A stretch of 64,000 nucleotides of DNA from Ignavibacteriota bacterium (lineage in GTDB: Bacteria; Bacteroidota; Ignavibacteria; UBA10030; UBA6906). The stretch lies in NCBI GenBank assembly GCA_963808715.1, contig CAWEHG010000015.1, positions 8,732 to 72,731 of the forward strand, given 5' to 3'. Positions 1-62,953 of the stretch are shown piece by piece; positions within the stretch are counted from its first letter, which is position 1, and each line of letters starts with the position of its first letter. The translations under genes were made by a program, and so were the position numbers. The notes beneath the pieces are model-generated. The model saw nothing but the letters and a program-made list of their open reading frames with translations, searched no databases and was not told the origin of the DNA.

Positions 1-1300
1 CGCGGTCCGGCATGTCGTCCAACGCGAGCGAGATCCTGTCCAGCCACTGGACCTCGCGCGGGGGGAGCGCGAGTGCCTTCTGTCCGGCCGCTTCCTTCAT
101 GATCGTGACCGACGTGCGCGCAGCGGCGACCGTCTGCGCGTAGTGGCCCTTCTCGGCCACGATCGCCGAGGCGATCTTCACCGTCGATTCCGGCGAGAGG
201 ATCAGTGCCTGCGGACTCAGCCCGGTGTCCGAGTTGACCAGCATCGACTGGTACTGGCGTGCGGTTCCCTGCTTGATCGCCTGATTGAAGAGCCGGCAGT
301 CGTATGCCAGCAGCTCAAGGAAGGCTTCGGGGGCCGAACCCGACAGCAGCCGCACGTTCTGCACCGATTCGTTGCTCCAGAGGTCGCACATGGCGGCGGC
401 GACGTTCCCCACAGGACTGAAGTGCGCGCAGGCCGCCGACTTTCCCTCCATCGCGATCGTCGTCCCGGTGATGGCCTTGAGCACCGGTCCCTCATAGGCG
501 CAGTCCTTCGACGGTCCCATCGCGCCGCATTCGTAGGCCACCAGGCTGCGCACCGCGCTGGCCGCACGGATCACCGTGGCCAGAACCTCCGGCAGCATCC
601 CCTGACCCGCCAGTTGCATGGCGGTGTTGGCGAACCCGCAGGCGGAGTCCGCCCCCGGGACGACCCCGCGTCTCCGCGAGATCTCCACGATGGCCTTCCA
701 GAGCCAGTCCATGTCCCGCGGGGCCAGTACACCAAGGGCGAAGATCGCCCCCCGGACGTCCCCGTACATCAGCGCCTCGTCGTGCACCTCTTTGCCGCCG
801 ACGGACTCGATCGAGAAGATGTGCGCCCCCGATTCCGCGCAGCGCTCGAACGATTCGCACAGGATGTCCCATTCTTCGCCGGACCGGAGCAGCGGAGGAC
901 GCTGCCGGTCCCGCACGTCGGTGGGGGTGACCCGGAGGGCGGACGCGAGCCCGTACTCGTTATGCGCCTGCGCGAGAGCGCCGTGGAGGATCGAGGTGAT
1001 CTCCGCTCCCCACGCCGGCGTCTCCGTCATCGGGGGAAGCAACTCGAATTCGACGACCAGTCCCGGAAGCCGGAGCCGCCGGGATGCCCGGACGATCATC
1101 TCGCCGATCTCGCGGTAGTGCGCCAGCACCTCCTGCCACGTGCTCTGCTCGATCGTGACGGGAGGGAGAGTGAAATTCAGCTCAGGGAAGACCGTCCCTG
1201 CGCCGAGACGGAGGCCAAAGCCACAGTCGAGAGGCTGTGGGACGATGCCGAACTGAAGTCCCGCCGGGTCGGCAATGGCAAGTCGGGGAAAGGTCTGCAT
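1..1300 (-). CDS. mtaB: MtaB-like methanol:corrinoid methyltransferase homolog (C-terminus beyond window edge)
   Basis: Own minus-strand translation from ATG (plus 1298-1300) gives 433 sense codons to the window edge, so it is missing from the ORF track. MQTFPRLAIADPAGLQFG..; SIESVGGKEVHD, DSACGFANTAM, SLVAYECGAMGPSKDCAYEGPVLKAITG, AMEGKSAACAH and MCDLWSNESVQ are collinear with Methanosarcina MtaB as I recall it. Track ORF 143..1321(+) is its Arg-rich antisense shadow. Confidence 0.8.
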   Translation of the reverse strand, partial: MQTFPRLAIADPAGLQFGIVPQPLDCGFGLRLGAGTVFPELNFTLPPVTIEQSTWQEVLAHYREIGEMIVRASRRLRLPGLVVEFELLPPMTETPAWGAEITSILHGALAQAHNEYGLASALRVTPTDVRDRQRPPLLRSGEEWDILCESFERCAESGAHIFSIESVGGKEVHDEALMYGDVRGAIFALGVLAPRDMDWLWKAIVEISRRRGVVPGADSACGFANTAMQLAGQGMLPEVLATVIRAASAVRSLVAYECGAMGPSKDCAYEGPVLKAITGTTIAMEGKSAACAHFSPVGNVAAAMCDLWSNESVQNVRLLSGSAPEAFLELLAYDCRLFNQAIKQGTARQYQSMLVNSDTGLSPQALILSPESTVKIASAIVAEKGHYAQTVAAARTSVTIMKEAAGQKALALPPREVQWLDRISLALDDMPDR

Positions 1301-1390
1301 GGCGTTCCTGATATGAAATGACGTTTCGTACTGGGAATATAGGAAATGTCCTGGAATGCTGCATGCGCACGGGCCGATCCTTCGGTGGGC

Positions 1391-3055: not shown

Positions 3056-4099
3056 ATGTCTCGGGCGAGACAGCACACGGGGATCCACGGGTCACGGTCC
3101 AGGGGCGAGCGGGTGGTCGCCGCCATCGTCATCGCTCTGCTCTGGCCGGCGTCTGCGCTCGGGCAGGGCTACGACGATACGTTCGAGATGAGGAGCAAGC
3201 TGAAGCTCGAGCTGCAGTACGCGGACTACAGCCAGTACGAATACCCGGAGCCGATCCTCTTCGGTTATGGCGTCGGTCCCTATACCCAGAACGAACCCTA
3301 CATCGTCAACTTCCCCGAGTGGCGGGCGCTGGTCAAGTACACGCGCCTTTTCGGCCCGCGGACGGCGGTGAGCCTCAAATACCAGTTCTCGGATCTCAAG
3401 ACGGGCATCGCCGGTCATTACCTCGAAGGGAAGGTGACCCGCAACCTGAGCGATCCGGTGATCGGTCTCCTTTCGGGGGCGTACCTGTACGATTCCCGCG
3501 GCTTCGGTGCCTTCCAGGGGGGAGCGGGGCTCTCCTGGGAGATCAGCCCGATCACGCTGGTCCAGGTGGACGGGCAGTACTACCACCGCGGACCGGAGGC
3601 GGTTCCCCTCGGCGGAGAGATGGGTTCGCTGAACCTCCGGCTGAAATTCCGACAGGTCCTCACGCTCTCCACGGCGTTCTTCGCGGAATACAGCTACTAC
3701 AACGCGAACGGCGATGCGATCTCATTCCTCTCGCACAATCTGTCGCTCTGGCTCAGCCAGTACCTCCCCACAGAGACGGCCGTGCACTTCAACGTCCGAC
3801 TGTACACGAACACCGCCGGCATCAGGTCGATCTGCCCGTCGGTGGAGATCGGACAGTACCTGAACTGGGCGACCGTGCTTCTGCTCAAGTTCCGGTATTA
3901 CCAGAACGAGAGCGACAACGTCAGTCTCGGCGAGCAGGGAGTGATCATCCCCGACGGCCTGATCTCCAGGACGCTCAGCGCACAGGTGAACCGCGATATG
4001 TCGGCGACCCTTCTGATGTACCTCAAGTACCGGTACTACAAGAGCAACCTCGGCGTGGCGATGCATACGTACATGCTCGGCGGCGTATGGTCATTCTAG
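3056..4099 (+). CDS. putative outer-membrane beta-barrel protein, family not recognised
   Basis: ORF 3056..4099. Signal peptide ..VVAAIVIALLWPASALGQG; Tyr-rich alternating strand pattern; C-terminus ..HTYMLGGVWSF with terminal Phe, typical of OM barrels. Confidence 0.6.
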   Translation: MSRARQHTGIHGSRSRGERVVAAIVIALLWPASALGQGYDDTFEMRSKLKLELQYADYSQYEYPEPILFGYGVGPYTQNEPYIVNFPEWRALVKYTRLFGPRTAVSLKYQFSDLKTGIAGHYLEGKVTRNLSDPVIGLLSGAYLYDSRGFGAFQGGAGLSWEISPITLVQVDGQYYHRGPEAVPLGGEMGSLNLRLKFRQVLTLSTAFFAEYSYYNANGDAISFLSHNLSLWLSQYLPTETAVHFNVRLYTNTAGIRSICPSVEIGQYLNWATVLLLKFRYYQNESDNVSLGEQGVIIPDGLISRTLSAQVNRDMSATLLMYLKYRYYKSNLGVAMHTYMLGGVWSF

Positions 4100-4911
4100 T
4101 GAAGCAAAAACACCGGCGGCCCGATCGGCGACTCCGAGGCCTTCTCAACTCACCGGGGTTCCTGGCGGCCGTGGTCTTGACCCTCGCGGGATGCGGCAGC
4201 CCGCCGGAGCCGTTCCCGCCCCCGGATTCGGGTGCGATCCGGGTGAGCGCATTCTCCAGCGCCCCGATCGATTCGGTGTTGGTCCATCTGGACGACCTGG
4301 CCCAGGGTGTTTTTGCGAATCCGTGCACCCTCCGGTCGGTGGTAGCCGGGACCCACAAGCTTACGGTCGTCGACAGCACGGGCGCCCGGACGGATACGAT
4401 GGTCTCCGTTCGAAAGGACGAACTGACCTCGACCGCGGTCCGGCTCACCAGGATCGGTCCATACGTGGGGAACGAGGCGCCGGACTTCGCGGTGAAGGAT
4501 ATCGACGGTCGACAGTTCTCGCTCGGCGCCCAGAGGGGCCGGGTGGTTTTCGTCTCCTTCTTTGAATACACCTGAGCGACGTGCATCACGACGGAGTTTC
4601 CGTCGTTCCAGTACGGGATCTACATCCGGCAGGACACCGCGAAGTTCCGGATGATCGCGTTCGAGAACCTGTCGTCCACGGCATGGCTGAAGAGCTACCG
4701 CAGCTCCAAGGGGATCACCTATCCGATGGTGCTGGATTCCCTTGGCCAGGTGTTCTCCCCGTATCGTGTGGATCCGTGTACGGGAACGTCGTGCCGACAT
4801 GCATCCTTGTGGACAAGAAGGGGCATAGTGCGTTTTGGAGCGACAATCAGTTCGAATATGGTGCTCGTGCTGTCTGACAAGATCACCGAACTGCTGTCTG
4901 AACCACCATAG
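4087..4911 (+). CDS. TlpA/redoxin-like lipoprotein, candidate selenoprotein (T-U-A-T-C; Sec codon TGA 4573-4575), two frame breaks as sequenced
   Basis: ATG 4087 (frame of ORF 3319..4575): MVILVKQKHRRPDRR..VVLTLAGC lipobox. ..NEAPDFAVKDIDGRQFSLGAQRGRVVFVSFFEYT-TGA-ATC-ITTEFPSF..; the same frame resumes in ORF 4651..4911. The C-half ..GITYPMVLDSLGQVFSPYRV / VPTCILVDKKGHSAFW (ORF 4581..4877 frame) / VLVLSDKITELL needs frame changes near 4768 and 4855. Confidence 0.6.
4588..4606 (+). promoter_or_regulatory. candidate bacterial SECIS hairpin downstream of TGA 4573-4575
   Basis: ACGACGG-AGUUU-CCGUCGU: perfect 7-bp stem, 5-nt loop with G at loop position 2. Stem starts 12 nt after the TGA; loop starts 19 nt after it. 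Confidence 0.55.
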
Positions 4912-4950
4912 GCCGGATTGCGCTATTCCGGCAGAGATGGGAGGGCTGTC

Positions 4951-7251
4951 ATGAGCATTTGCGAAGCGTCTACTCGCCGAGGGTTTGTGTGGGTGGTATG
5001 GATTTGTTTGGCGGCGTCGACCGCAGTGGGTCAATGGAAATACATCGGTCCGGATGGAGGCGCTCTGGGGGCTATGGCGGGTCACCCCACTGATGCGAAT
5101 GTGGTGTATGTGGTATCCGCTGCCGACTACTCTACAAAACTCCTCAAGTCGGCAGACAAGGGATTGTCTTGGTATCAACTGGGAATTGTGGGTGCTCCAT
5201 AGGATGTCCTCCTCGTGGATTGGTCAAACCCCGCTCTCATGTACACTTGCGGCTATGCAGGACTTAGGAAGACGACCAACGAAGGGGTGACCTGGGCCAC
5301 CGTGAGTCTCCCCACGCGCAACTACCTGCAGACGATCACCCTTGACCCGCAGAGTGTCAGCACGATTCACGGTGCCGGGTACTATTACGATACGGCCGCG
5401 ATAGGGCTCTACGCGAGAAGTACGAATGGGGGAACGAGCTGGAGCACGAAGCTTCTGACCTCCCGCCGTTCGTACATGTATTGCGTGACGGTGGCACCCA
5501 CCAATACGCAGATGGTGTTCGTCGGGGGGTATGACGTGGATTCGCTCACGTTCGCTCATTGGCAAACTAATGCGAAGTACGAACGGTGGCTCAAGTTTTT
5601 CGGATTGCACGGGTCCAATGAGTGGGACGGTGAACCATGTTCTCTGCGATCCCCTAACGGCTGGCAAGGTCTACGCCGCCTGCAACGAGGGGGTATACCG
5701 GAGTACCGATTGGGGAACGACCTGGACCATGAACAGTGGGATCGTGCTCTATCCCCAACGATTATCCATATGCCCAGCGAACACGGCCGTCCTCCTGGCC
5801 GCTACGTGGACTACGGCATCTACCGAAGTACCAATGGAGGATCATCGTGGGAGGCTGTTACCTCCGGGATGCCCAGTGCTCATCCCAAAGCTGTCCTGAT
5901 CGAACCAGGGAACCCCTCGGTAATGTACGCGGCAACGACCGCTGGGTTCTGCCGGAGCACGAACGGTGGGGGACAGTGGGTGTGGTCCTCCCGGCGCATC
6001 CGGGCGGCGAGCGTAAGCACGCTGGCGTTTGCTCGTCGAACCGTTCGCGAGTCTATGCGGGAATCGAGCCTGATGGGGTATTCAAGACGTCCCGGTGCTC
6101 TCGGCATGGGAACGGTTGCGTGGCAGCCCACGGGATGATTCATCTCATGCAGGAATACCGTGCCTGGGGTGGTGGTGTCCATGTCCAATGCTGATTCGGT
6201 CTTCGTCCTTGAAGGGGGTGGCCTCTAAGCAACCCGGCGACGCTCCACGTGAGCGGAGGTGGCGGGGCCACCTGGACCGATGTTCCGGCAGTGTTGCAGG
6301 ATGGAGCAGCCCTGGTGTGGGGACAGGGTCTCTTTCAAGCAGGTTCGTACTACGATCCTGAAAAAGGAATCCGCCAAATCGCTGTGGCGCGGAGCACAAA
6401 TCGAGGGCACAATTGGGTCACGACTGTTCTCGCTCAGAACTCTTCTGGATACGCAACGTGTCTCAACTTCAGGGCGGACAATCCGTCTGTCGGGTATCTT
6501 TCCGGCTACTACTATGACAGCGCATGGTATTCGCACGGCAAGATCTTCAGGACAACCAATGGCGGTCTGTCTTGGGGAGAGATCGGGAATTCAGTCTTTG
6601 ATACGGGAAAACGCCCCGTGCTGGCGATTGTGCCTGATCCTGCCAACCCAAACCGCCTCCTATCAGGAACGTACAATGGGGTCTACTTCACTAGTACCGA
6701 TGCCGGGAGTACGTGGAATTCGCCGGTCCAGTCCTTCAGGGCCATGTGCATCACAGAGGACAAAACTGTGGCCGGGAGGTTCTGGGTTGGCACCGACAAC
6801 GCGGGCGTCTGGACTACAACGAACAGTGGGAGTAGTTGGCAACAACTGAACACCGGTCTGCCGACATCAAACATCCTTTCTATCGTTCACGATCCCGTAA
6901 GCCGCGTATTGTATGCGGGGACCAAAGGCGAAGGTGTCTTTCGCCTTGACCTTCCTACGGGGGTGGAACGAGAGCCGGGCGCTTCTTTACGAGTTCGCGT
7001 TGGATCAGAACTATCCAAATCCCTTCAACTCGACCTCCACAATAGGATTTCGAATCCCAGCAGATGATCACGTGAAGTTGACCGTGTTCGATCTTCTCGG
7101 GAGGGAGGTGACCGTGCTGGTAGACGAGCCGAAAAGTCCCGGTCAGTACCAGGTGCAGATGGACACAGGGAGGCTTGCCAGTGGAGTGTATGTTCTCCGA
7201 CTGACGTCCGGCACAAGGACTCAGACGCGGACGTTGATCTTGGTTCGCTGA
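4951..7251 (+). pseudogene. BNR/Ycf48-like beta-propeller repeat protein with T9SS C-terminal sorting domain (fragmented as sequenced)
   Basis: Stitched from ORFs 4918..5202, 5215..6138, 5531..5899, 5736..6194, 6095..6361, 6249..7067 and 6913..7251. Signal peptide MSICEASTRRGFVWVVWICLAASTAVGQ. Blades STNGGTSW, STNGGSSF, STDWGTTW, STNGGSSW, TTNGGLSW, STDAGSTW, TTNSGSSW. C-terminus ALDQNYPNPFNSTSTIGF..GVYVLRL..LILVR. In-frame TAG 5200-5202 plus at least six frame changes. Confidence 0.7.
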
Positions 7252-7293
7252 TTGTTGTTTGTAGCGAGAAGAACCCACACCATCGAAGGGCGC

Positions 7294-7829
7294 ATGCGTA
7301 AGAGAATGATCTTTACGTTTTGGTCATTGTGGTGCTACATGCTCACGCTGCCTTGGGGCAAGAGGGACTCAGGGCCGGGGTGAAAGCGCCGGACTTCTCG
7401 CTCGCGACGGTGCAGGAGCAGGTCGTTTCGCTGAAGGATGCGGTCGCCAAGGGGACGGTCATCCTTCACTTCTGGAAGTCGAAGTGAAGGGAGTGCCAGG
7501 CGGAGTTTCCGCCTCTCAAGAAGATCGCCGAGGAGTTCAGGGACGTCCGGGTCCTCTCCATCAACCCGATCGACATGGCCGGGCGGGTGCGGTCCGACGC
7601 AGAGAATTTCGAGCTTCCCTATGAGGTGCTGGTGGGGAGGGATTCCGATATCATCGAAACGTATCAGATCTTCAAGCTTCCACGCATCATCGTCATCGCG
7701 CGGGGCGGCACCATTTCCTACACGGAACGGTACGCGCCGTACGACAAACTCAAAGAAGAGGTGAACAAAGCGAGAGCCCAGAAAACCCCATCGATCGAAG
7801 TAGGGTCGCTGTTGAGATGTCATGGGTGA
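7294..7829 (+). CDS. TlpA/redoxin-like secreted protein, candidate selenoprotein (K-U-R-E-C; Sec codon TGA 7485-7487)
   Basis: Frame 0: ..LVIVVLHAHAALGQEGLRAGVKAPDFSLATVQEQVVSLKDAVAKGTVILHFWKSK-TGA-REC-QAEFPPLKKIAEEF.. runs into ORF 7575..7829 (..FELPYEVLVGRDSDIIETYQIFKLPRIIVIARGG..). N-terminus uncertain: ATG 7294 (MRKRMIFTFW, frame 1) needs a 1-nt shift in T-run 7318-7321, or TTG 7320 starts directly. Track ORF 7335..7823(-) is an antisense shadow. Confidence 0.65.
7498..7514 (+). promoter_or_regulatory. candidate bacterial SECIS hairpin downstream of TGA 7485-7487
   Basis: AGGCGG-AGUUU-CCGCCU: perfect 6-bp stem and the same AGUUU loop as the 4588..4606 hairpin. Stem starts 10 nt after the TGA; loop starts 16 nt after it. 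Confidence 0.55.
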
Positions 7830-7865
7830 CTTGGGTTGCTCCGTGGACTACGTTTCCATCAACAG

Positions 7866-7892
7866 AAAAGGCCCCGGACTACGGGGCCTTTT
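7866..7892. terminator. bidirectional intrinsic terminator
   Basis: AAAAGGCCCCG-GACUA-CGGGGCCUUUU: perfect 11-bp stem with a 5' A-tract and 3' U-tract, between convergent stops at 7829(+) and 7918(-). Confidence 0.8.
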
Positions 7893-7917
7893 CTGTCAAC
7901 AGCATGAGTGCCGGATC

Positions 7918-10710
7918 TTACTGTACCGGCTTTCCGTCCGGATCCACCAGCTTCAGCTCACCGTAGTTCAGCTCCCGGATCCCCTTTTCGATCTTGTTCC
8001 GGTCGCCCACCACCACCCAGACGAGCGACGAGGGGGTGATCACCGACTTCGCTGCGGCGGCGATGTCGGCCTGCGACAACGCACCCAGGCGCGCGCCGTA
8101 GCCCTGATAGTAGTCCTCGGGCCATCCGTAGCGGATGACCTCGTTCATGGAACCGAGGATGGCCGAGTTCGTCTCCCAGCGCCCGGGCAGCTGCAGGGTC
8201 ATGTTTCCCTTCGCCTTCGTCACCTCGTCCGCGGTCGGCGGCCGGGTCGTCAGGATTCCGTGAACTCCTTCGTGATCTCGACCATGGACTCCTTGGTCTT
8301 GTCGGTCTGCACCGGCGCGCATAGCGATGAACGGCCGCTGGCCGCGCGCGTCGGGGAGGAACATCGCGCGCGCCGTAGGACCAGTGCTTGTCCTCGCGCA
8401 GGTTCATGTTGATGCGCGAGGTGAACGTGCCGCCGAGGATCGTGTTCATCGTCTCGATGGCGATCTCGTCGGGGTTCGTTGTCGGCGGGGCGAGGTGCGC
8501 CGCGAAGATGACCGACTGCTGCGCGCCCGGCTTGTCGATGATGTAGACGCCGGTGCTCGGCCGGCTTCACGGCACGTCGAGATGTTCTTCTTCGGGCACG
8601 TCGCCCGGCTTCCAGTCCTCGAAGAGCTTCTCGAGCTTCGGCTGGAGTCTCGGCGAGCGTCGTGTCGCCGACGACGATCAGCGTGGCGTTGTTGGGCTTG
8701 AACCAGGTCTCGTGGAACTCCACGAGATCGTCGCGCGTGAGCGTCGTGACCGACGGCCTCGTGCCCGAGCCGGTGAACGGGTTGCCGTAGGCGTGGTCCG
8801 GCGCCGTAGAGCAGGCCCGGCAGGACGCGCAGCGCCATCTGCGATGGGCTGCGCCTTCTCGCGCTGGATGCCGCCAGCGATCTGCTGCTTCTGCAGGCGC
8901 TCGAAATCGGCCTCGGGGAAGCGCGGGTTCAGGATCGACGTCGGCGATACAGCGTCGAGCGACGGCGTCGAGGTTGGCCTTCAGCGCGGACAGCGAGACG
9001 CGACGAGGTGTCCAGGCGGCTCCGGTGCCGAGCGTCGCGCCCAGCCGCTGCGAGCTCGTCGCTGATCTCAGCGCGGTCCGCGTCTTCGTGCCCTCGTCCA
9101 GCATGTCCATGGCCAGGCTGGCGGTGCCGGGCGACGCGACCTGGTCGGCGGCGTAGCCGGCGTCGAAGCAGCAGGTCGAAGTCGACGACCGGGATCGCCG
9201 TGCGCGCTCGGCGAGGACGATCTTCAGGCCGTTGGACAGCGTGGCCCGCTCGACTCGGGAACTTCGCGACCGGCGGCTGCGCCGGGCTCCGGCAGCTTCG
9301 AGCGGTCGACGCCGCTTGGCGGCGGCTGGCGTAGCTGCGGGAACGGATGGACCTCGAGGATGTAGACGCCGTCGGAGAGCCAGCTCCTTGGCGCGCCTCC
9401 TGCACGTCGTCGGCCGTCGCCGCCTGCTCGACGTGCGAGCGCGTGTCTTGTAGGCGTCGGGGTCGCCGCCGAAGACCTGGTTCGTGGCCAGGATGTCGGA
9501 CTTGCCGCCGAAGCCGCCGATGCGCTCGATGCCGCGGATGAAGCCGGCGACGTACTCGGTCTTCACGCGCTCGAGCTCGTCCTCGCGTCGGGCCCTTCGT
9601 CGAGGAACCTGCGCCAGCTCCTCGTCCATGGCCTTCTCGACCTTCGCGAGGTCGCCGCCGGGCTTGGCCGTGGCCTCGACGATGAACTGGCTGGCGATCT
9701 CGCGCGGGTCGACGTAGGCGGAGACGTCGGTGGCGATCTGGTCGTCGTAGACCAGCCGCTTGTAGAGGCGCGAGGTCTTCCCGGCCGAGAGGACGTCGCG
9801 CGGCGAGGTCGAGCAGGTACTCGTCCTCGGCGTCCCGACGCCGGGACGTTCCAGACCTTGTAGATCCGCGCCTGCGGCACGCGGTCCTGCAGCACTGCCG
9901 CGCTGCGTGCCGGTGCGCTTGGCGATCCACTGCGTCGTGCTGCGCGACCGGCGGGCCGGGCGGGATGTCGCCGAAGTACTTCTTCGACCTTCTCCAGCGC
10001 CGTCCTGCGGTTCGACGTCGCCGGCGATCGACGAGCACGGCGTTGGCGGGGCCGTAGTAGGTCTTGAACCACTCCTTCACGTCGTCGAGCGAGGCGGCGT
10101 TCAGGTCCTCCATCGAGCCGATCACCGTCCAGGAGTAGGGATGGCCGGCGGGAAGATGGCCTTGGCGATCAGTTCGTCGGCGATCGGCCGTAGGGCTGGT
10201 TCTCGCCCTGGCGCTTCTCGTTCTGCACGACGCCGCGCTGCTCGTCGAGCTTCGCCTGGTCGATCGCGCCCAGCAGGTGGCCCATGCGGTCGGATTCCAT
10301 CCAGAGGACCAGGTCGAGCGCCGAGGTCGGGACGTTCTCGAAGTAGTTCGTGCGGTCCTCGCTGGTCGTGCCGTTCAGGTCGGTGGCGCCGAGCCGCTCC
10401 ATGGCCTTGAAGTAGTCGTCGTTGAAGTTCTCGCTGCCGTTGAACATCAGGTGCTCGAACAGGTGGGCGAAACCGGTCTTGCCGGGCTTCTCGTTCTTGG
10501 AGCCGACGTGGTACCAGACGTTCACGGCCACGATCGGGGCCTTGTGGTCCTCGTGGACGATCACGGTCAGGCCGTTGTCGAGCACGAACTTCTTGTAGGG
10601 GATGTCGATCACATCGGCGGCCGCTGGTTCTGTGCCAGGGCGGTGACCGCGCCGGCCAGCAGGACCGGCAGGAAAAGCATGAAGAGCAACTGGGTGGGTC
10701 GCATGCGCAT
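7918..10710 (-). pseudogene. M16 (pitrilysin-family) zinc peptidase, about 930 aa with two halves, heavily fragmented as sequenced
   Basis: ATG at plus 10708-10710 with GGAG 5 nt upstream: MRMRPTQLLFMLFLPVLLAGAVTALAQ. Then VIDIPYKKFVLDNGLTVIVHEDHKAPIVAVNVWYHVGSKNEKPGKTGFAHLFEHLMFNGS (HxxEH). More M16 segments are scattered over ORFs 10122..10784, 8929..10125, 9563..10072, 8250..9629, 8446..8838, 7958..8449 and 7918..8364 (KKYFGDIPPGPPV, AVLQDRVPQARIYKVWNVP, LSNGLKIVLAER, MNTILGGTFTSRINMNLREDKHWSYGA, ..VVVGDRNKIEKGIRELNYGELKLVDPDGKPVQ). Well over ten frame switches. Confidence 0.75.
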
Positions 10711-10832
10711 CTCCAGGAGGTAAGTGAAAGGCAGGGAGCGGTGTGCTGTCGCTGAAATCTATTCAAAGCGGGGAGAAGATTCAACCCCCGCCACCTCCGG
10801 GCACTTCGTTTTCTTGAGAGAAATCCCTATGT

Positions 10833-13278
10833 TTGGCCATGCAACTCCCCCAACTCCCGGTCACAGACGCCCTTCCGCGGATACGGGAAGCGATACGGCG
10901 TTCGCCCTCGACCATTCTTTCCGCCCCTCCCGGCGCCGGTAAAACGACACTGGTACCTCTCGCCATTCTGGAAAGCGGGATACTCCGGGATTCGCGGATC
11001 ATCATGCTCGAACCGCGCCGATTGGCCGCCCGCCGGGCAGCGGAGTACATGGCGTCACTTATGGGTGAGAAAGTCGGCGGGAAGGTCGGCTACCGGATCC
11101 GCGGCGAGTCAGTGGTCGGCGACAATACCGCGATCGAAGTGGTGACCGAGGGGATCCTGACCCGTATGCTCCAGTCCTCGCCCGACCTTCCCGGTGTCGG
11201 GCTGCTCATCTTCGACGAGTTCCACGAGCGGAGCATTCATGCCGACCTTGGGCTTGCCCTCGCTCTGGACGTGCAGGAGCACCTGCGTCCGGATCTGCGC
11301 CTTCTGGTCATGTCCGCGACTCCGGATACCGACGCGCTCGTTCGCCTCCTCGGTGAACCGGCCATAGTGACCAGCGAAGGGAGGCAATATCCGGTCGAGA
11401 CCCGGTACCGCGCCTTCGCTGTGGAAGGGCCGATCGAGAAATGCGTCGCGGAGACGGTGCTTCGTGCGCTGGAAGAGGAGGAGGGAGACATTTTGGTGTT
11501 CCTGCCGGGGCAACGGGAGATCCGGCGGGTGGAACGGTTGCTGGAGCCGCGATCGCAGGGAGGGGAGGTGCAACTCCATCTATTGTACAGTGAAGCTCCT
11601 CCGGCGCAGCAGCGGTCCGCTCTTTCACCTGCCCCGCGCGGTGGACGAAAGGTCATCCTCGCCACCAACGTGGCGGAGACCAGCCTGACGATCGACGGGG
11701 TCCGCGTGGTGATAGATTCTGGAATCGATGAGAGTCTCCAGGTTCGACCCCAGGAGGGGAATGTCCGGACTGGAAACCGTCGTCGTCTCCAGGGCGTCGG
11801 CCGATCAGCGTCGCGGGAGAGCCGGCCGGCAGTCCCCCGGGATCTGCTACAGGCTCTGGACGGTGGACCAGGGATCCTCGCTCCCTCCCCATAACGTTCC
11901 GGAGATCCTTTCCACGGATCTCGCGCCCCTGGCCCTCGAACTTGCCGGGTGGGGGGGCGGGCTGCGTTTCATCGATCCGCCTCCTCCGGCACATCTTGCG
12001 CAGGCACGAACGGTCTTGACCGGGCTTGGAGCCCTTGACGCTTTGGGCCGGATCACGCTCCACGGAAAAGCGATCAGGGAACTCCCGGTCCATCCAAGGC
12101 TCGCGCACATGATCCTGGCCGCACGAGAGTTCGGGCGTGACGCGCTTGCCTGCGAGGTCGCTGCGCTTCTGGAGGAGCCGGGCCGGGGCGATCGGGAGGC
12201 CGACTTCCGCGCACACTGGCAGGCCGTGCGTGAAGGACGTGGGGATCGGGAGGGAAGGATCCGCCGGGAGGTCCGACGGTTGCGGGCGATCGTCGGTGCG
12301 CGAGAGGAAGAGGGGAGCGAGGATTCTCTCGGGATCCTCCTCGCGCTGGCCTACCCCGACAGGATCGGGAAACGCCGGCCGGACGGCAGGTATCTCCTCT
12401 CCGGCGGAACCGGCGCGGTCATTCCCGCCGGCAGCCTGCTTGCCCGTAGTGAGTTCCTCGCTGTCGCCCATCTCGATGCATCGGGAACCGAAGCGATGGT
12501 CCGGCTCGCCGCGCCGGTGACACGGGAAGAACTGTTGAAGGTCTTCGGCCCGGTCCTCAACGATCAGGAGGAGATCGGATGGGACGGTCAGGCCGTCACT
12601 GGGCGCCGCTCGCGCATGCTCGGCAAGGTCGCACTGGAAGAGCGACCTCTGGAGGTTGACACGGAAACCGCCCTGACAGCCATGCTGGAAGGGGTGAGGA
12701 CCATGGGACTTACCTGCCTGTCCTGGTCAGCGGAGTGCAGTTCGTTGCGGGCCCGGAGCGAGTGGCTCAGGCGCAGCGGCGTTGCCCCGGGAGAATGGCC
12801 GGACCTGAGCGACGACGGGCTGCTGGCTGACCTCGCAGGATGGCTCGGACCACATCTGCACGGCGTCACCAGGAAGAGCCAGCTGGAGAGGCTCGACACG
12901 AGCGGGATGCTCCGCGCCTACCTGGGCCACCGGCGGATGGCGGATCTGGAGCGGCTGGCTCCGGCGTTCCTTGCGGTCCCGACAGGTTCGAGGATCCGCC
13001 TCGACTACGAATCGGGACCGGTCCTCGCGGTCAAGCTGCAGGAGATGTTCGGACAGGTCAACACTCCCACTGTGGCCGGGGGAAAGGCCGCGGTGCTGAT
13101 CCACCTGCTCTCGCCAGCAGGGCGCCCTCTCGCCATCACGCAGGACCTTCCGAATTTCTGGCAGAAGGTCTATCCGGAGGTGAGAAAGGAGATGCGGGGC
13201 CGATACCCTAAGCATCCCTGGCCCGAGGATCCCCTCTCCGCCATCCCGACCCGGAGGACAAAGAAACGGGCGAGATGA
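10833..13278 (+). CDS. hrpB: ATP-dependent helicase HrpB (DEAH-box), one frame break
   Basis: ORFs 10833..11894 and 11728..13278. APPGAGKTT Walker A, LLIFDEFHERS, ..VVIDSGI / RVSRFDPRRGMSGLETVVVSRASADQRRGRAGR, C-terminal ..RGRYPKHPWPEDP. Frame change near 11724-11731. Confidence 0.85.
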
Positions 13279-17354: not shown

Positions 17355-18743
17355 ATGAGCTCCAATGGGGTGAATCGGCGTGATCTCTTGAAGACCGGGG
17401 CGCTGTTCGCCATCGGCGCACCATTGTTCGATCTGCTCGAATCGCGACGGGCGGAAGCCGAGCCGCTGGTGCTCGATCAGGAACCCGCGGCGAAACCGGT
17501 CTCCCGGCCCATCACCGCCGTCGTCCTGGGGGCGGGGAACCGGGGAAACGTCTATGCTTCCTACGCGGAGAAATATCCGGACGAGCTGAAGATCGTCGGC
17601 GTTGCGGAGCCGATCGAAGTGCGCAGGGCCAGGTTCTCGGCGCGGTACAACATCCCGGCGGAACACCAGTGGACCACCTGGGAGCATGCCTTCACCGTCC
17701 CGAAGTTCGCCGATGCGGTGATCATCACCACCCCCGATGCGCTGCACTACGGCCCGGCGATGAAGGGGCTGGGGATGGCGTACGACATGATCCTGGAGAA
17801 GCCCATTGCGCAGACCTGGAAGCAGTGTGCCGACATCATGAAGCTGGCGCAGCAGAAAAAGCGGATCGTGGCGATCTGTCACGTACTCCGGTACACGCCC
17901 TACTTCAGGAAACTGAAGGAGGTGATCGATTCCGGCCAGCTGGGGACCGTCGTCAGCGTGTCGCACTTCGAACCGGTGCAGCATGAGCACATGGCCCACT
18001 CCTTCGTGCGGGGGAACTGGAGGAACTCGAAGGAATCCAACTTCATGCTCCTGGCGAAGTCGTGCCACGACCTCGACATGCTCCGATGGCTCATCGGCAA
18101 ACCCTGCACCTCCGTGGCCTCGTACGGCGCCCTCTCGCTCTTCAAGAAGGAGAACGCGCCCGCGGGGAGCACCCTGCGCTGCACGGACGGATGCGCGGTC
18201 GAGGCGACCTGTCCATATTCCGCGCTGAAGATCTACTACCGGAACCGGACCTACCTCGGGCACATGGACCTGCCGGCGGAAGGAGACAAGGGGCCGGCGA
18301 TCCTGGAGCACCTGAAGGCCGGACCCTACGGGCGGTGCGTCTACCACTGCGACAACGACGTGGTGGACCACCAGGTGGTGGCGATGGAGTTCGCCGACAG
18401 GATCACCGCCTCCTTCTCCATGGAGGCGTTCACCGCATACCACGGCCGCAGGACGCGGATCATGGGGACGATGGGTGACGTGGTGGGGGACATGGAACTG
18501 ATGACCGTCACGGACTTCCGGACCGGCAAGGCCACGACCTGGGACGCCACGAAGGCGCTCACCGTCCAGTCAGGGCACGGCGGCGGGGACTACGGCCTCG
18601 TCCACGATTTCCTCAGGGCGGTGGACGCTCAGGATCCGTCGCTGCTCACCTCCACCATCGAGGCGTCGATGGAGAGCCACCTCATCGCCTTCCGGGCCGA
18701 AGAGAGTCGCCTCAAGGGGAAGATGGTGCTGGTCAAGATGTAG
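17355..18743 (+). CDS. Gfo/Idh/MocA-family oxidoreductase with twin-arginine signal
   Basis: ORF 17310..18743, start moved to MSSNGVNRRDLLKTGALFAIGAP (Tat motif). Rossmann AVVLGAGNRGNVYASY; ..ILEKPIAQTW..; intact. Confidence 0.85.
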   Translation: MSSNGVNRRDLLKTGALFAIGAPLFDLLESRRAEAEPLVLDQEPAAKPVSRPITAVVLGAGNRGNVYASYAEKYPDELKIVGVAEPIEVRRARFSARYNIPAEHQWTTWEHAFTVPKFADAVIITTPDALHYGPAMKGLGMAYDMILEKPIAQTWKQCADIMKLAQQKKRIVAICHVLRYTPYFRKLKEVIDSGQLGTVVSVSHFEPVQHEHMAHSFVRGNWRNSKESNFMLLAKSCHDLDMLRWLIGKPCTSVASYGALSLFKKENAPAGSTLRCTDGCAVEATCPYSALKIYYRNRTYLGHMDLPAEGDKGPAILEHLKAGPYGRCVYHCDNDVVDHQVVAMEFADRITASFSMEAFTAYHGRRTRIMGTMGDVVGDMELMTVTDFRTGKATTWDATKALTVQSGHGGGDYGLVHDFLRAVDAQDPSLLTSTIEASMESHLIAFRAEESRLKGKMVLVKM

Positions 18744-18769
18744 CTCGTCACAGTGCATTCGGGAAGACG

Positions 18770-20937
18770 ATGAAGATGAATCGTTGGATCGCGGCCAGCC
18801 TGCTGCTCCCCTGCGTGGCTTTTGCGCAGGGGATCAACCGCCCCTTGATCCAGACCCTCGTGGACGCGGTCTCGCGCGACAGCCTGGTCAGGGTCATCAC
18901 GGACCTCCAGGGATACGGTACCCGGTACGAGCTGTCGCCGCAACAGGATTCCGCGGGGGTCTACCTCGAGCGGGAGATGCGCCGGCGGGGAGCCGCGGTG
19001 GAACGTCAGAGCTACCTCTTCGGCCTGCCGGCGCTCCGGAGCGTCGACCTCCTGGATGCGTCGACCGCCTGGGCGGTCGGGGGCGATTCCGCCATCGTGA
19101 GAACCACGGATGCCGGCCAGACCTGGACCTCCCAGAAGTCTGTTGCAGGTGCTTCGTACTACGGGGTGGACTTCGTCAACTCCCGTGTGGGATGGGCCGT
19201 GGGTTCGGGCGCGCTGATCGTGAAGACGACCGACGGCGGGTCGACGTGGGTCCGGCAGACCCCCGACACCTCCGTGGCGCTCAACGATGTCGTCGCGCTG
19301 GACGAACAGTCGGCGGTCGCGGTCGGCGCTTCGGGGGTCATCCTGCGGACGACAAACGGCGGACAGCAGTGGCAGCGCAGGATCACCGGTGTGGGGCAGG
19401 CGCTGAACGAGATCGAGGCACGGGACGCCACAAACCTCTGGGTTGTCGGGGCGGGGGGAACGATCCTGGCTTCCACCGATGCAGGGGCCGGCTGGACACC
19501 GCGCACGTCGGGCACAACGTCGTCCCTCACAGACATTCACTTCGCGAACGGCCGCCTGGGGTGGATCGTGCTGGCGAATTCCTTGCTGAAGTCGACCAAC
19601 GGAGGTTCATCGTGGACGGGGGTCGCTGCCCCGGTGGGTTCATCGACATGCCGGTCGTTGCGATTCGCGGACAGCACGACCGGGGTCCTGGTGGACGGGG
19701 CGCAGAACATCTTCCGGACGACGAACGGGGGAAGCAGCTGGTCGAAGGTGTACGACCCCGCAGCTTCGGGTTGGGTGAAGGGGTGGACGCCGGCCCTCAC
19801 CGAGGTGCGTTCGGCCGGACGGCTGACCGCCGTCGGGAGCAGGGGGACCATCCTGACAAGCACCGACAACGGGGCCGCCTGGACCAGCCAGACGGCGAAT
19901 CTCCCTGCGGCGCTGATCCATGTCTCCCACAATATCGTCGGTACGATCCCGGGCTCGGCCACTCCCGACAAAGAGGTCGTCCTGGTGGCCCACTACGATT
20001 CCTACAGTAACAATCTCATGGTTTCCGCTCCCGGCGCAAACGACAACGCGAGCGGCACGGCCGCGGTCCTGGAGGGTCTGCGCGTCTGCCTCCCCTACCG
20101 CTTCGCCTGCACGCTCCGCTTCGTTGCGGTGTCGGGGGAAGAACTCGGAATGTACGGCAGCCAGCACTATGTTGCCCGGGTCGTCTCCGAAGGCCGGAAC
20201 ATCGTTGCGGCAGTGAACGCCGACATGATCGGTTATCCCACCACGGCGGATACGGCAAGGCTGGTCGCTTCCAGCTACCTGACCCGCAACTGGCTCCTGG
20301 ATTCTTCGGTGGTCTACAGTCAGCGGTACGGGCTGGGACTCACCGCGGTCACGCTCGTCGACAATACGGGAGCGAGCGACTATGGCCCCTTCGCGGTCGC
20401 CGGGTACCCGACGCTGGACATCGCGGAGGGGACGGCGAACGAGATCTGGGGAGGTGCGGACCCCTACTACCACAAAACCACGGATACCATCGACAAGCTG
20501 AAGGTTTCGCTGGTGCGGAAGGGGGCGCAGTGGATGCTCGCCACCGCGCTCGAGCAGGCGAACCCCCTCGGACCGGTCTCCGTGGAGCCGGGGTGACCGA
20601 GATGCCTGCGGAGTATGTTCTTACACAGAACTATCCGAACCCGTTCAATCCCTCCACCACGATAGAGTACACGGTCCCGAAGGCTGGAGGCCAACCGGCG
20701 AGTGGGGACCGGCTGGCGGCCGGCGACCGGCCGGCGGTGGGGGAGCGGGTGGGACGAGTGAGGCTTGCCGTCTACGATCTGCTGGGACGGGAAGTGGCGC
20801 TGATCGTGGACGAGGAGCAGAGGCCCGGGAGGTACAGCGTGCGGTTCGACGCAGGACCCCTCTCCAGCGGCGTCTATTTCTACCGGCTGACCGCCGGGGC
20901 TCTCGTGTTGACCCGCAAGATGACCCTCGTGCGATAG
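18770..20937 (+). CDS. M28 peptidase with an inserted BNR/Ycf48-like beta-propeller and a T9SS C-terminal domain (one frame break)
   Basis: ORF 18770..20596 plus ORF 20530..20937. MKMNRWIAASLLLPCVAFAQ; seven blades (TTDAGQTW, TTDGGSTW, TTNGGQQW, STDAGAGW, STNGGSSW, TTNGGSSW, STDNGAAW). Then HNIVGTIPG..VVLVAHYDSYS..GANDNASGTAAVLE..VAVSGEELGMYGSQHY. CTD YVLTQNYPNPFNPSTTIEY..GVYFYRL..MTLVR reached by a shift in G-run 20590-20593. Confidence 0.75.
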
Positions 20938-23736: not shown

Positions 23737-23941
23737 CGCGCACCTGAGGGTCTGGTGAGGGTTGAGGGACGGACCGGTCGTGAACGCAACATCCGGTCAA
23801 CGGACATCAACCTACAGAATGACGACGCAAGAGTCAACCGTGATGCCTCCGGATGAGCCCTGAATGGAATACGTCTTGCGAGCTCGATCTTCCTCCCGTA
23901 TATTCCCGCATACCCTGCAGTGCGCACCCGGAGCTCCTGAC

Positions 23942-25168
23942 ATGACCTCTCGTGAACGCGTTCTCTCTTCTCTGAACCACGTGGCGCCGGACATGGTCCC
24001 GATCGACTGCTCGGGGCACCGCTCCTCGGGGATCTCCGCGATCGCCTATGCAAAGCTCCGCCGCCACCTGGGCCTCCCGGACCGTCCTCTCCGCGTCTAC
24101 GACATCATCCAGCAGCTGGCGGTCCTGGACGACGACGTCCTGGACCGGTTCGGGATCGACACGATCGAACTGGGGAGAGCGTTCGCCCTCGATGACCGGT
24201 ACTGGGTCGATTGGACCCTTCCCGACGGTACGCCGTGTCAGGTGCCGGCATGGACGCCGCCCGAACGGGTGGAGAGCCACTGGGTGATCCGCTCGGCCAG
24301 CGGCAGGGTGCTGGCCAGGATGCCGGAGGGCGCGCTCTATTTCGAGCAGGCCTCCTGGCCGTTCGTCGACGGGCCTCCCGACCACAGCCGACTGCAGGAG
24401 GCTTTCGCAGAATCGATGTGGACCGGGATCGCATCGCCGCCCGGGCCGATCACCGGGGGAGCGGAGGGACAGGCGCTGCTGGGGCAGGAGGCCCGCCGGC
24501 TGCGCGAAAGCACGGACCGGGCGATCATCGGACTGTTCGGGGGGAACCTCCTCGAGTGCGGACAGTTCCTCTACCGCAACGACCACTTCCTTGAACTCAT
24601 GGCCGCCGACCCCGCGGCGACGCACGACTTCCTGGACAGACTCGTCGAGATGCACCTCGGGAACCTCGAACGCTTTCTTGCCGCGGTCGGGCCGTACATC
24701 GACGTGATCGTTTTCGGCGACGACCTGGGAATGCAGACCGGTCCGCAGATGTCCCCCGCGATGTACAGGAAGTATTTCAAGCCCCGGCATGCCTTGCTCT
24801 GGAAGCGTGCCAAGGAACTGGCGAACGTCAAGGTCATGCTTCACTGCTGCGGCGGCGTGCGTGAACTGCTTGCCGATCTGATCGATGCCGGCCTGGACGC
24901 GATCAACCCGGTGCAGATCTCTGCCGGGGAATGGACGCCGCGGGTCTCAAGGCGGACTTCGGGCAGAAACTGACCTTCTGGGGTGGGGGGTGCGACACGC
25001 AGTTCGAGCTGAGCAGGGGGACGCCGGAAACAGGTGCGGGATCATGTCCGCCGGCAGGTCCGGGTCCTGCAGCCGGGGGGAGGGTTCGTCTTCCAGCAGG
25101 TGCACAACATCATGGCGGACGTCCCGCCGGAGAACATCGTGGCGATGTTTGATGCCGTGAGGTCCTGA
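23942..25168 (+). CDS. uroporphyrinogen-decarboxylase-fold (URO-D / MtaA-CmuA-like) family protein, two compensating frame breaks
   Basis: ORF 23864..24973 (start moved to MTSRERVLSSLNHVAPDMVPID), ORF 24931..25152 (GMDAAGLKADFGQKLTFWGGGCDTQ), then back to the first frame (QVRDHVRRQVRVLQPGGGFVFQQVHNIMADVPPENIVAMFDAVRS, stop 25166-25168). Breaks lie in G-run 24926-24929 and A-run 25028-25030. Confidence 0.7.
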
Positions 25169-29892: not shown

Positions 29893-31468
29893 TCACTGTG
29901 CCTGCTTGCCGCCGGTCTTGCCGGTGCGGTTCGGTTCCAGCCGTTTCGGCCACTCCATCTGCTTGCCCGTGGCCTTGTCCACCGGCAGCACCCGCCGCTC
30001 GCGGGAGACCGTCTGGGGGTCTTCCGAGGCGAGATAGGCGAGACAGGCCATCAGGACCACGTTGTTCTTCAGGTCGTCGAAGACGAGCTTGTCGTACGTG
30101 TCCCTGTTGGTGTGCCACGTGTAGGCGAAGTAGTCCCAGTTCACCCCGCCGACCCCGAACCCTGGTGCTCCGGCGGTCGTGAACGAGGCGTTGTCCGTCC
30201 CGCCGCCGCCGGGCATTCCCGGGAAACTCGGCTTGAGATCCCTGGTCACCTCCGACGGGATCCGCGAGAGCCAGCGTGCGATCTGTTCGCCGCCGTTCAG
30301 GAAGCCCGCAGCGCCGATCCCGGTGATCCGGCCCGTGCCGTTGTCCTGGTTGAACAGGGCCTGCATCCGGTCGACGATCTCGGGGTGGTCCGCGACGAAT
30401 GCCGCGGAGCCGTTCAGTCCCTGTTCCTCGCTCCCCCAGAGCCCGGCCATGATCGTGCGCTTCGGATGGGGGTAGACCTTTTTCAGGATCCTCATCGCCT
30501 CGATCATGATGAGAGAGCCGGTGCCGTTGTCCGTTGCCCCGGAAGCGCCGTCCCATGAATCGAGGTGGGCCGAAAGGATGACGTATTCCGCGGGCTTCTC
30601 AGAGCCCTTGATGATCCCCAGGGAATTGGAGGCCGGGACCGGTCCGAGGAACCGGGAGTCGGTCTCGATCCTGAGCAGGGGGTTGTTGCCATATTCGACC
30701 AGGCGATAGAGCAGGGCGTAGTCCTCGAGGCTCAGGGCCACCGCGGGGATCTTCTTCGTGCTCGTGCCGAAGATGCGGTAGGTTCCCCACCCACTGGACC
30801 AGTCGGACGTGATGATGCCCGCCGCGCCGGCCTGTTCCAGCACCTGGTGGAGCGTGTCGGCGTTGAAGCCGGTGATCTTGCGCCGATGCTCCCAGTTCTT
30901 GCGGGTACGCTCGCGGGAAGCCTTCAGGCTGTCGAACGAGTCTTTGGTGGCCTGTTCCTCCCATGTCTTGTCGGGACGTCCCGTGGGCTGCGGCATGCGA
31001 GAGCAGGACGAATTTCCCCTTGACGGATGGGAGCCACTTCTGGAACGCAAGGGAATCCTGCGCATCGGCGAAGATGATCAGGCGGGCGCTCACGCCCCCC
31101 CGCGGAGTGGCGGGGCTCCACGACAGCATTGTTCCCTCGAGTGTCCGCACCCGGGGTTCCAGGAGGTCGATATGCGACGTGCCGCGTTCCCATCCGCGCC
31201 ACGTGCCGTACTGTTCGGTCTTTCCCTCGATCCCCCACGCGGCGAATTGCGCCTCGGCCCACGCGTGCGCCTTCTGCATCTGCGGCGTGCCGGTCAGCCG
31301 TGGTCCGACAACATCCAGCAACTCGTGCGCGAGCCGGGGGAGCTGGGTCGAATCCATGGCTTCGGCCCAGATACTCCGGATGACCGGGTCGTCCGAGGGG
31401 AAGGTCTGTCCCTGGACCGCGATAGGCAGGGCGAGCAGCAGCACGGCGAGAATAGATCTCACGTCCAC
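29893..31468 (-). CDS. M28-family aminopeptidase (one frame break)
   Basis: ORFs 30599..31468 (MDVRSILAVLLLALPIAVQGQ..KGKFVLLS) and 29893..31065 (..YVILSAHLDSWDGASGATDNGTGSLIMIEAMRIL..AGLWGSEEQGLNGS..GGGGTDNASF..). Break near 30993-31003. Confidence 0.8.
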
Positions 31469-61143: not shown

Positions 61144-61210
61144 TTGAACTGTTCGGGGCTTCTTCCTATCTTCCACCTCACACTTTCACGAGGAAGGAGA
61201 GCGCCCGCTC

Positions 61211-62921: not shown

Positions 62922-62953
62922 CGGGGGAGTCCTTGCGCGTCGGGGTGAGATCG

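Follow-up and report, generated by a model that had tools for sequence, protein, structure and literature searches.

A candidate selenocysteine codon in a TlpA/ResA-like lipoprotein gene of an Ignavibacteriota contig

The element of E. coli fdhF is a characterised example of a bacterial selenocysteine insertion sequence (SECIS). The constraints published for bacterial SECIS (bSECIS) elements comprise a loop of 3-9 nucleotides (nt), an upper stem of 4-16 base pairs (bp), a minimum free energy (MFE) of -7.5 kcal/mol or lower, a spacing of 16-37 nt between the UGA and the loop, and a G within the first two loop positions, the loop being usually of the form N1-G-[G/U]-N-N2 with pairing of N1 and N2 (PMC13188914, 2026 review). 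Among the selenoproteins that have been predicted, thioredoxin-fold proteins with a UxxC motif, where U is selenocysteine (Sec), belong to the commonest (PMC2398784). The established predicted UxxC families include the 'Prx-like thiol:disulfide oxidoreductase' (PF00578), the 'thiol-disulfide isomerase-like' (cd02966) and the 'Redoxin family' (PF08534) proteins, as was presumed in an earlier, sequence-only reading of the DNA described here, which had called UxxC redoxins a known selenoprotein class. The present analysis concerns R1, a redoxin-like gene interrupted by an in-frame TGA on the forward strand of a 64,000-nt stretch of an Ignavibacteriota bacterium (assembly GCA_963808715.1, contig CAWEHG010000015.1, positions 8,732 to 72,731), referred to as the window. 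As judged from its sequence and that of its relatives, the TGA of R1 is predicted, with a probability of roughly 0.9, to encode Sec in a family of envelope lipoprotein oxidoreductases, and R1 is on this reading an additional member of the known UxxC TlpA/Prx-like selenoprotein class that is unannotated in public records.

R1 was found to share with the predicted UxxC selenoproteins the fold family (AhpC-TSA/Redoxin), the UxxC motif, a predicted Sec for the N-terminal Cys of CxxC and a bSECIS-like element just 3' within the coding region, R1 being, like these families, a bioinformatic prediction. It differs from them in the presence of a lipobox and a PEGA-like domain, in the motif ..FFE[HY]T-U-x-x-C-I-x-x-E-[FL]-P, in a family made up of nearly all Sec forms, in its synteny with a DUF3570-like protein, BNR/sortilin proteins tailed for the type IX secretion system (T9SS) and a second selenoprotein paralog (R2), and in the occurrence of two or three paralogs per locus without any public annotation. 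The likeness to ResA/TlpA/CcmG (DsbE) was found in the best solved-structure matches (1st9, 4nmu and 2ls5, E down to 3e-13), in the active-site position and in the membrane-anchored or periplasmic location, which for R1 is a predicted one, whereas R1 would contain Sec for Cys, lacks the W of W-C-x-x-C (Y-T-U-A-T-C) and has no cytochrome c maturation genes near it. R1 was rejected as ResA proper because its top NCBIfam match, the ResA subfamily NF002854, scored only 54.3 bits where the subfamily cutoff is 170. It was also rejected as a peroxiredoxin of the TxxU/TxxC type, its motif being T-U-x-x-C, its best matches being ResA, StoA and TlpA, and its peroxiredoxin matches being weak (E ~1e-6 to 1e-2). 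With the bSECIS model (bSECISearch) the R1-type element shares a stem-loop directly 3' of the UGA, a loop A-G-U-U-U fitting the consensus form, a loop 16-22 nt from the UGA and an MFE below -7.5 kcal/mol, whereas its helix is short and perfect (6-8 bp), without a bulged U, and its binding by SelB is putative. By its sequence features, R1 is predicted to act like the UxxC selenoproteins and like ResA/TlpA, the published UxxC families having been compared by description only.

The R1 reading frame and its homologs

A frame opening at ATG 4087, its lipobox LTLAGC, the TGA at 4573-4575 and the continuation of the same frame as A-T-C had all been described by the sequence-only reading, and each was found at exactly those coordinates. 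The frame begins with MVILVKQKHRRPDRRLRGLLNSPGFLAAVVLTLAGC.. and reaches ..GRVVFVSFFEYT, the residues ..VVFVSFFEYT standing directly before the TGA, followed by A-T-C-ITTEFPSFQYGIYIRQ.. with the Cys codon at 4582-4584 and then ITTEFPSF. The lipobox Cys (C36) was an invariant column in the alignment of the closer orthologs and was present in every recovered ortholog. The beta-rich N-terminal domain gave a PEGA match below threshold (E = 0.048) and was found in one to three copies in some R1 homologs, as multi-stretch matches (e.g. P0037). When both halves were joined, with Cys substituted for U and the frame breaks mended, the protein matched AhpC-TSA of Pfam (1e-13, 51.8 bits against a cutoff of 26, covering positions 1-122 of the 124 in the profile) and also Redoxin (3e-8, 34 bits against a cutoff of 26.6), whereas each half by itself remained under the Pfam cutoff; since the AhpC-TSA match passes only with the halves joined, the domain is complete only across the TGA. 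In the alignment to solved structures the TGA column fell on the first Cys of ResA C-K-P-C, in agreement with the earlier placement of the stop at the first position of CxxC (U-A-T-C), and the U was also aligned to Cys in P0006 (WCPPC), P0007 (WCEPC) and P0114 (CQPC). The predicted architecture of R1 is a beta-rich (PEGA-like) N-terminal domain followed by a TlpA/ResA-like thioredoxin-fold domain with the motif U-A-T-C.

The protein search gave five close relatives of R1 (66-99% identity), every one of which stopped at ..FFEYT. A TGA was found in the R1 column in all eight further family members recovered as DNA (33-99% identity) from independent metagenomes and three MAGs (metagenome-assembled genomes), which were six orthologs (two on contigs ending soon after the TGA), the distant ortholog L011 and the paralog L010, and the downstream half was in frame in every further member with downstream sequence. 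The loci L001-L005 (63-99% amino-acid identity; L004 and L005 are metagenome loci) contained the TGA in this column followed by a frame open to ..KITELLAEP and its stop, where the contig was long enough. Orthologs from the MAGs, in L009, L010 and L011, showed 35-42% identity and the same TGA; of the three GTDB MAGs, one bears the label Ignavibacteria and another 'uncultured Bacteroidetes', and one of them also holds a paralog of 33% identity with a TGA in the same column. When the R1 alignment was scanned against the representative genomes of GTDB, no match was obtained; a second GTDB scan, with the R2 C-terminal alignment, gave four MAG loci, and R1 orthologs were found in them too.

The 162-aa N-terminal fragment, used as query in an exhaustive search without a profile, gave 126 cluster representatives (50% identity), at least 73 of which stop exactly before the Sec position, the commonest ending being ..FFEHT. 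Among the matches bearing WCxxC, the similarity was confined to the generic redoxin stretch. Cys in place of Sec, the alternative to which the earlier reading had drawn attention for this column, was found to be rare, P0114 (..FFYSG-C-QPC-MEEFP, ..FFYSGCQPCMEEFP) being a Cys form with the same architecture as R1. The close homologs of the Ignavibacteria ortholog (L010) were N-terminal fragments of ~145 aa in 19 of 19 cases, and every named one of them, NCBI records included, is a 'hypothetical protein'. The public homologs of R1 were likewise all 'hypothetical protein' fragments of 143-171 aa, so the gene is split by gene callers, as had been suspected. A separate observation concerns the orthologs of L003 and L002, between which the synonymous divergence was 0.67 upstream of the TGA and 0.16 downstream; this contrast points to a mosaic R1 gene, the C-terminal half of which was recently recombined or converted between lineages.

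The gene callers gave open reading frames (ORFs) of 162 aa and 85-86 aa in every assembly, which is what would be expected if the TGA were a genuine stop and the locus encoded an N-terminal fragment followed by a C-terminal fragment started at ATG 4651, as annotated. Neither half alone contains a thioredoxin fold, the conserved residues xxC-I-x-T-E-F-P-S-F-Q are encoded in frame by the 75 nt that separate the TGA from ATG 4651, and Met 4651 was not conserved, being Leu in L005 and other residues in the MAG orthologs. No restart codon was conserved downstream of the TGA, and the ratio of non-synonymous to synonymous substitution rates (dN/dS) 3' of it was 0.15-0.33, comparable to that of the 5' part; the downstream half of R1 is under purifying selection. 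The genuine termination in homologs that the earlier reading had named as fatal to its proposal was not seen, and termination at this codon is considered highly improbable. That the TGA is a misread or misassembled TGC, TGT or TGG, which the indel-type errors elsewhere in the window could call to mind, has a still smaller, practically negligible chance. The same TGA was found in eight other independently assembled members, at least 73 protein cluster representatives end at this residue, and the errors of the window are indels and not substitutions; the TGA being shared by independent assemblies, the misread base considered in the earlier reading is excluded.

The stem-loop 3' of the UGA and the second redoxin

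The hairpin of R1 was found to contain ACGACGG at 4588-4594, AGTTT at 4595-4599 and CCGTCGT at 4600-4606, the stem starting 12 nt and the loop 19 nt past the TGA with G as the second loop base, so that the 7-bp geometry described in the sequence-only reading was exact. Closure of the loop by an A-U pair gives an 8-bp stem with a GUU loop. The agreement with bSECIS models claimed in that reading was borne out by the published constraints, all of which the hairpin passes (loop A-G-U-U-U, 7 bp, 19 nt, -16.6 kcal/mol; PMC13188914). The 43 nt from the UGA folded at -16.6 kcal/mol with z = -2.85, a significant value. A perfect hairpin of at least 7 bp in bSECIS geometry followed 1.6% of the 1597 TGA trinucleotides of the window, and one of at least 8 bp followed 0.5%; among the nine in-frame TGAs with coding-like flanks in the window, such a hairpin was found only at R1, at R2 and at one antisense artefact. 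The lower stem of the extended predicted structure was retained in L005 and L002, where one C-G pair is replaced by U-G, its support being weaker than that of the upper stem.

An equivalent hairpin was found at all 17 TGA sites examined (8 R1-type, 1 paralog and 8 R2-type), with the loop 16, 19 or 22 nt from the UGA; the TGA was present in all nine R1-type sites, eight of which had sequence long enough to show the hairpin. In the 29-nt alignment of the 17 sites, 92.3% of the cells were paired compared with 82% in shuffles (0 of 500 reached 92.3%) and 40-63% in slid controls. Compensatory changes were found in three of the seven pairs, with A-U, G-C and C-G in pair 1, C-G and A-U in pair 2, and A-U and G-C in pair 4, among 13 distinct but related sequences in which the element overlaps a coding motif. 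In pair 2 the change was non-synonymous on one arm (Thr to Glu or Gln) and synonymous on the other (TCG to TCT). The codons GAG and CCG were invariant within the hairpin, and make up only ~0.5 and ~0.35 of the synonymous usage in these loci. The R1 hairpin is conserved and covarying. Rfam gave no family at gathering thresholds in the window, nor at E <=10 in 4500-4700. The hairpin was rejected as a terminator because the stem is not followed by a T-run, and the terminator scan found none there.

R2, a second TlpA-like redoxin about 3 kb downstream, was found to contain the same arrangement. The ORF 7488-7826 alone matched only the post-CxxC part of AhpC-TSA, and the frame read through is ..GTVILHFWKSK-TGA(7485-7487)-RECQAEFPPLKK... 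The start of R2 is uncertain, as ATG 7306 is out of frame and stands beside a TTTT run. The TGA was found at the R2 position in all eight orthologous loci (L006-L012), and R2 and these orthologs were found to have the hairpin too. An apparent Trp form at this position ('W' in JGI P0016 and P0018) was rejected, being in reality a TGA translated with code 4; the JGI code-4 gene calls on short contigs were also seen to carry a W-rich junk tail past the true stop (L006, 299-1006). R2, predicted to be a periplasmic paralog, would use the same device of UGA plus hairpin as R1. A third paralog type was observed in L010 (165-911, TGA at 606) with ..FFGSVG-U-GGGC.., in which the spacing of U and C differs (UxxxC); its hairpin, CGACGG-AGGCU-CCGUCG, is 22 nt from the UGA. 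The presence of R1 and R2 as independent UGA-interrupted UxxC genes 3 kb apart is indirect evidence that the organism decodes Sec.

If R1 is a selenoprotein, translation would insert selenocysteine at the UGA (4573-4575), and the hairpin at 4588-4606 with its loop A-G-U-U-U would recruit SelB-GTP-Sec-tRNA(Sec) in the manner of bacterial SECIS elements. The product would be exported and lipidated at Cys36, and the mature protein would act in the cell envelope as a thiol-disulfide (selenylsulfide) reductase or isomerase.

Several results weigh against a selenocysteine at this codon. No tRNA-Sec was found in the 64-kb window or in any fetched locus, no SelA, SelB or SelD domain was found in the composition-supported ORFs of the window, as the earlier reading had already reported, and no selA, selB or selD was seen in the fetched homolog loci. 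No experimental selenium incorporation was found on record for the R1 family. A longer, 68-nt stretch at the R1 UGA folded unremarkably (z = -1.0), and the R2 hairpin alone gave z = -0.8. The R1 hairpin partly overlaps the conserved peptide E-F/L-P, so that its conservation is partly protein-level, and two to four frame-breaking indels scramble the cis-Pro region of the assembled R1 copy, which may be non-functional or misassembled.

The missing Sec machinery would also suit a read-through without selenium, in which a near-cognate Trp or Cys tRNA or local recoding decodes the UGA and the hairpin is only a read-through stimulator or a pause site, and sequence alone cannot separate Sec insertion from other read-through. 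This explanation is regarded as improbable, because the UGA stands exactly at the catalytic Cys of CxxC in three paralog groups, the hairpin matches the geometry and loop rules of the SelB type, and UxxC thioredoxin-fold proteins are so common among predicted selenoproteins (PMC2398784). TGA is moreover a normal stop in the window, where it ends 31 of the 43 composition-supported ordinary genes, and a global reassignment of TGA was ruled out on the same count.

Frame breaks in the assembled copy

Two compensating frame breaks at about 4768 and 4855 had been noted by the sequence-only reading. The first was recovered at ~4770 and the return to frame 1 was best placed at ~4852, and a further compensating pair at ~4822 and ~4835, which that reading did not have, is probable from the comparison of the window sequence DKKG-IVRF-x-SDNQF-NMVLVLSDKITELL with DKKG-VVRY-R-TDGVF-NTVTPLSAKITELL in the orthologs. 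The four positions would be ~4770 (-1, in a G run), ~4822 (+1, GGGG for GGG), ~4835 (-1, after TTTT) and ~4852 (+1, TTC-G-AAT). At ~4770 the window was found to be one G short compared with L003, L002 and L004 (GTGGGATCC to GTGGATCC). The cis-Pro loop ..GNVVPTCILVDKKG.. is present in this copy only out of frame, in the part bounded by the 4770 indel and those at 4822-4852, whereas the cis-Pro loop region is intact in L002, L003 and L005.

The surroundings of the indels showed further irregularities. From 4823, inside the 3' end of R1, the identity to L003 dropped from ~100% to ~55-60%, and from ~4823 to ~7900 the GC content fell from ~64% to ~55%; possible origins of the tract 4823-7900 are recombination, a chimeric join of two strains or poor polishing. 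The sortilin/BNR-like genes following R1 were disrupted, an in-frame stop interrupting them at 5200-5202 and a frameshift near 6985. Elsewhere in the window a HrpB-type helicase was divided between the overlapping ORFs 10833-11894 and 11728-13278 (+), and an M16 peptidase, 8250-10762 (-), was spread across three frames, which indicates occasional indels in other parts of the assembly.

Two to four indels within ~85 nt, broken neighbours (the stop at 5200-5202, the shift near 6985 and the out-of-frame start of R2) and a divergence and GC drop beginning at ~4823 are what would be expected if this copy were a decaying pseudogene of a selenoprotein family, with real 3' frameshifts and with the TGA and the hairpin as fossils. 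This explanation is unlikely. Over its first 680 nt the copy shares ~99.6% identity with the L003 allele, which is intact, and dN/dS is low. G or T homopolymers contain or adjoin at least three of the indels, every residue of the corrected frames agrees with the orthologs, and HrpB and the M16 peptidase are split likewise. Taken together, these observations fit an indel-prone assembly of the long-read type. The frame breaks of R1 are accordingly favoured to be indel errors, the stretch being variable between strains and poorly polished, with real decay as the alternative.

Gene neighbourhood and significance

The coordinates of R1, of its upstream neighbour and of R2 are given in Table 1. The upstream gene was found to be syntenic in every locus reaching that far; its 347-aa protein had no Pfam or NCBIfam match, and a lookup of the exact protein gave no record. 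The ATG of R1 overlaps the end of this gene at 4087-4099 and the N-terminus MVIL of R1 was invariant in the closer orthologs, which together suggest translational coupling. The conserved neighbourhood of R1 contained the 347-aa DUF3570-like protein, T9SS-tailed BNR/sortilin proteins and R2. From this gene order, envelope proteins or T9SS-secreted BNR/sortilin-like proteins are proposed, as a conjecture from synteny only, to be substrates of R1.

Table 1. Positions of the features of R1, R2 and the upstream gene in the window
Feature	Coordinates	Strand	Remark
Upstream gene, 347 aa, faint DUF3570 similarity (precomputed annotation)	3056..4099	+	End overlaps the start of R1 (ATGGTCATTCTAG)
R1 read-through coding region	4087..4911	+	Depends on decoding of the UGA (4573-4575) and on correction of the frame within 4770-4852
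R1 lipobox L-T-L-A-G-C	4177..4194	+	Cys at 4192-4194; read by eye
R1 N-terminal beta-rich domain, weak PEGA match	4225..4452	+	Putative domain assignment
R1 in-frame TGA, proposed selenocysteine codon, first position of U-A-T-C	4573..4575	+	
Extended predicted structure, lower stem CGUGC (4580-4584) with GUACG (4611-4615)	4580..4615	+	MFE structure
R1 TGC, resolving Cys of UxxC	4582..4584	+	Aligns to the second Cys of ResA CxxC
R1 SECIS-like upper stem-loop ACGACGG-AGUUU-CCGUCGU	4588..4606	+	Within the bSECIS constraints
Indel stretch in R1, two to four single-base indels compared with intact orthologs	4768..4855	+	
R2, second TlpA-like redoxin, in-frame TGA 7485-7487 (..HFWKSK-U-REC..)	7320..7829	+	
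R2 SECIS-like hairpin (C)AGGCGG-AGUUU-CCGCCU(C)	7497..7515	+	Loop from 16 nt past the UGA

Other genes of the window were also noted. The ORF at 5-1390 (-) gave a strong match to MtaB, the B subunit of methanol-cobalamin methyltransferase (E = 5e-147), and a URO-D/MtaA-like gene was found at 23864-24970 (+); together they hint at methylotrophic corrinoid metabolism on this bacterial contig. Three M28-family peptidase genes were found at 18479-20593, 29896-31077 and 61148-62962, one of them fused to BNR/sortilin-like repeats, and the M28 peptidases with the T9SS-tailed proteins suggest a secreted-protein-rich lifestyle of the type seen in the Fibrobacteres-Chlorobi-Bacteroidetes (FCB) group.

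A wider proposal, put forward tentatively and considered doubtful, is that R1, R2 and the third type (V-G-U-G-G-G-C) are undescribed, almost exclusively Sec-containing families of envelope TlpA-like proteins that form a dedicated extracytoplasmic selenoprotein redox module. If it holds, one family would be lipid-anchored by way of a PEGA-like module and the other would be soluble in the periplasm. In Ignavibacteria-like bacteria of the FCB group, their genes would stand together with those of a DUF3570-like outer-membrane protein and of BNR/sortilin proteins secreted by the T9SS. A minimal SECIS would then be built into the conserved E-F/L-P codons, and the module would have been missed throughout public annotation.

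General knowledge of selenoproteins is unchanged by R1, and the 17 hairpin sites offer a clean example from nature of how compensatory changes occur in a short bacterial SECIS. With Sec as the preferred reading of the R1 codon, a systematic annotation error would be corrected, as the 'hypothetical proteins' of ~150 aa, in at least 73 clusters, and their orphan C-terminal ORFs of ~85 aa would be the halves of one selenoprotein. The two Sec redoxins per locus, three in relatives, imply the use of selenocysteine by little-studied bacteria of the FCB group, where it is apparently employed in the cell envelope, beside the genes of T9SS cargo.

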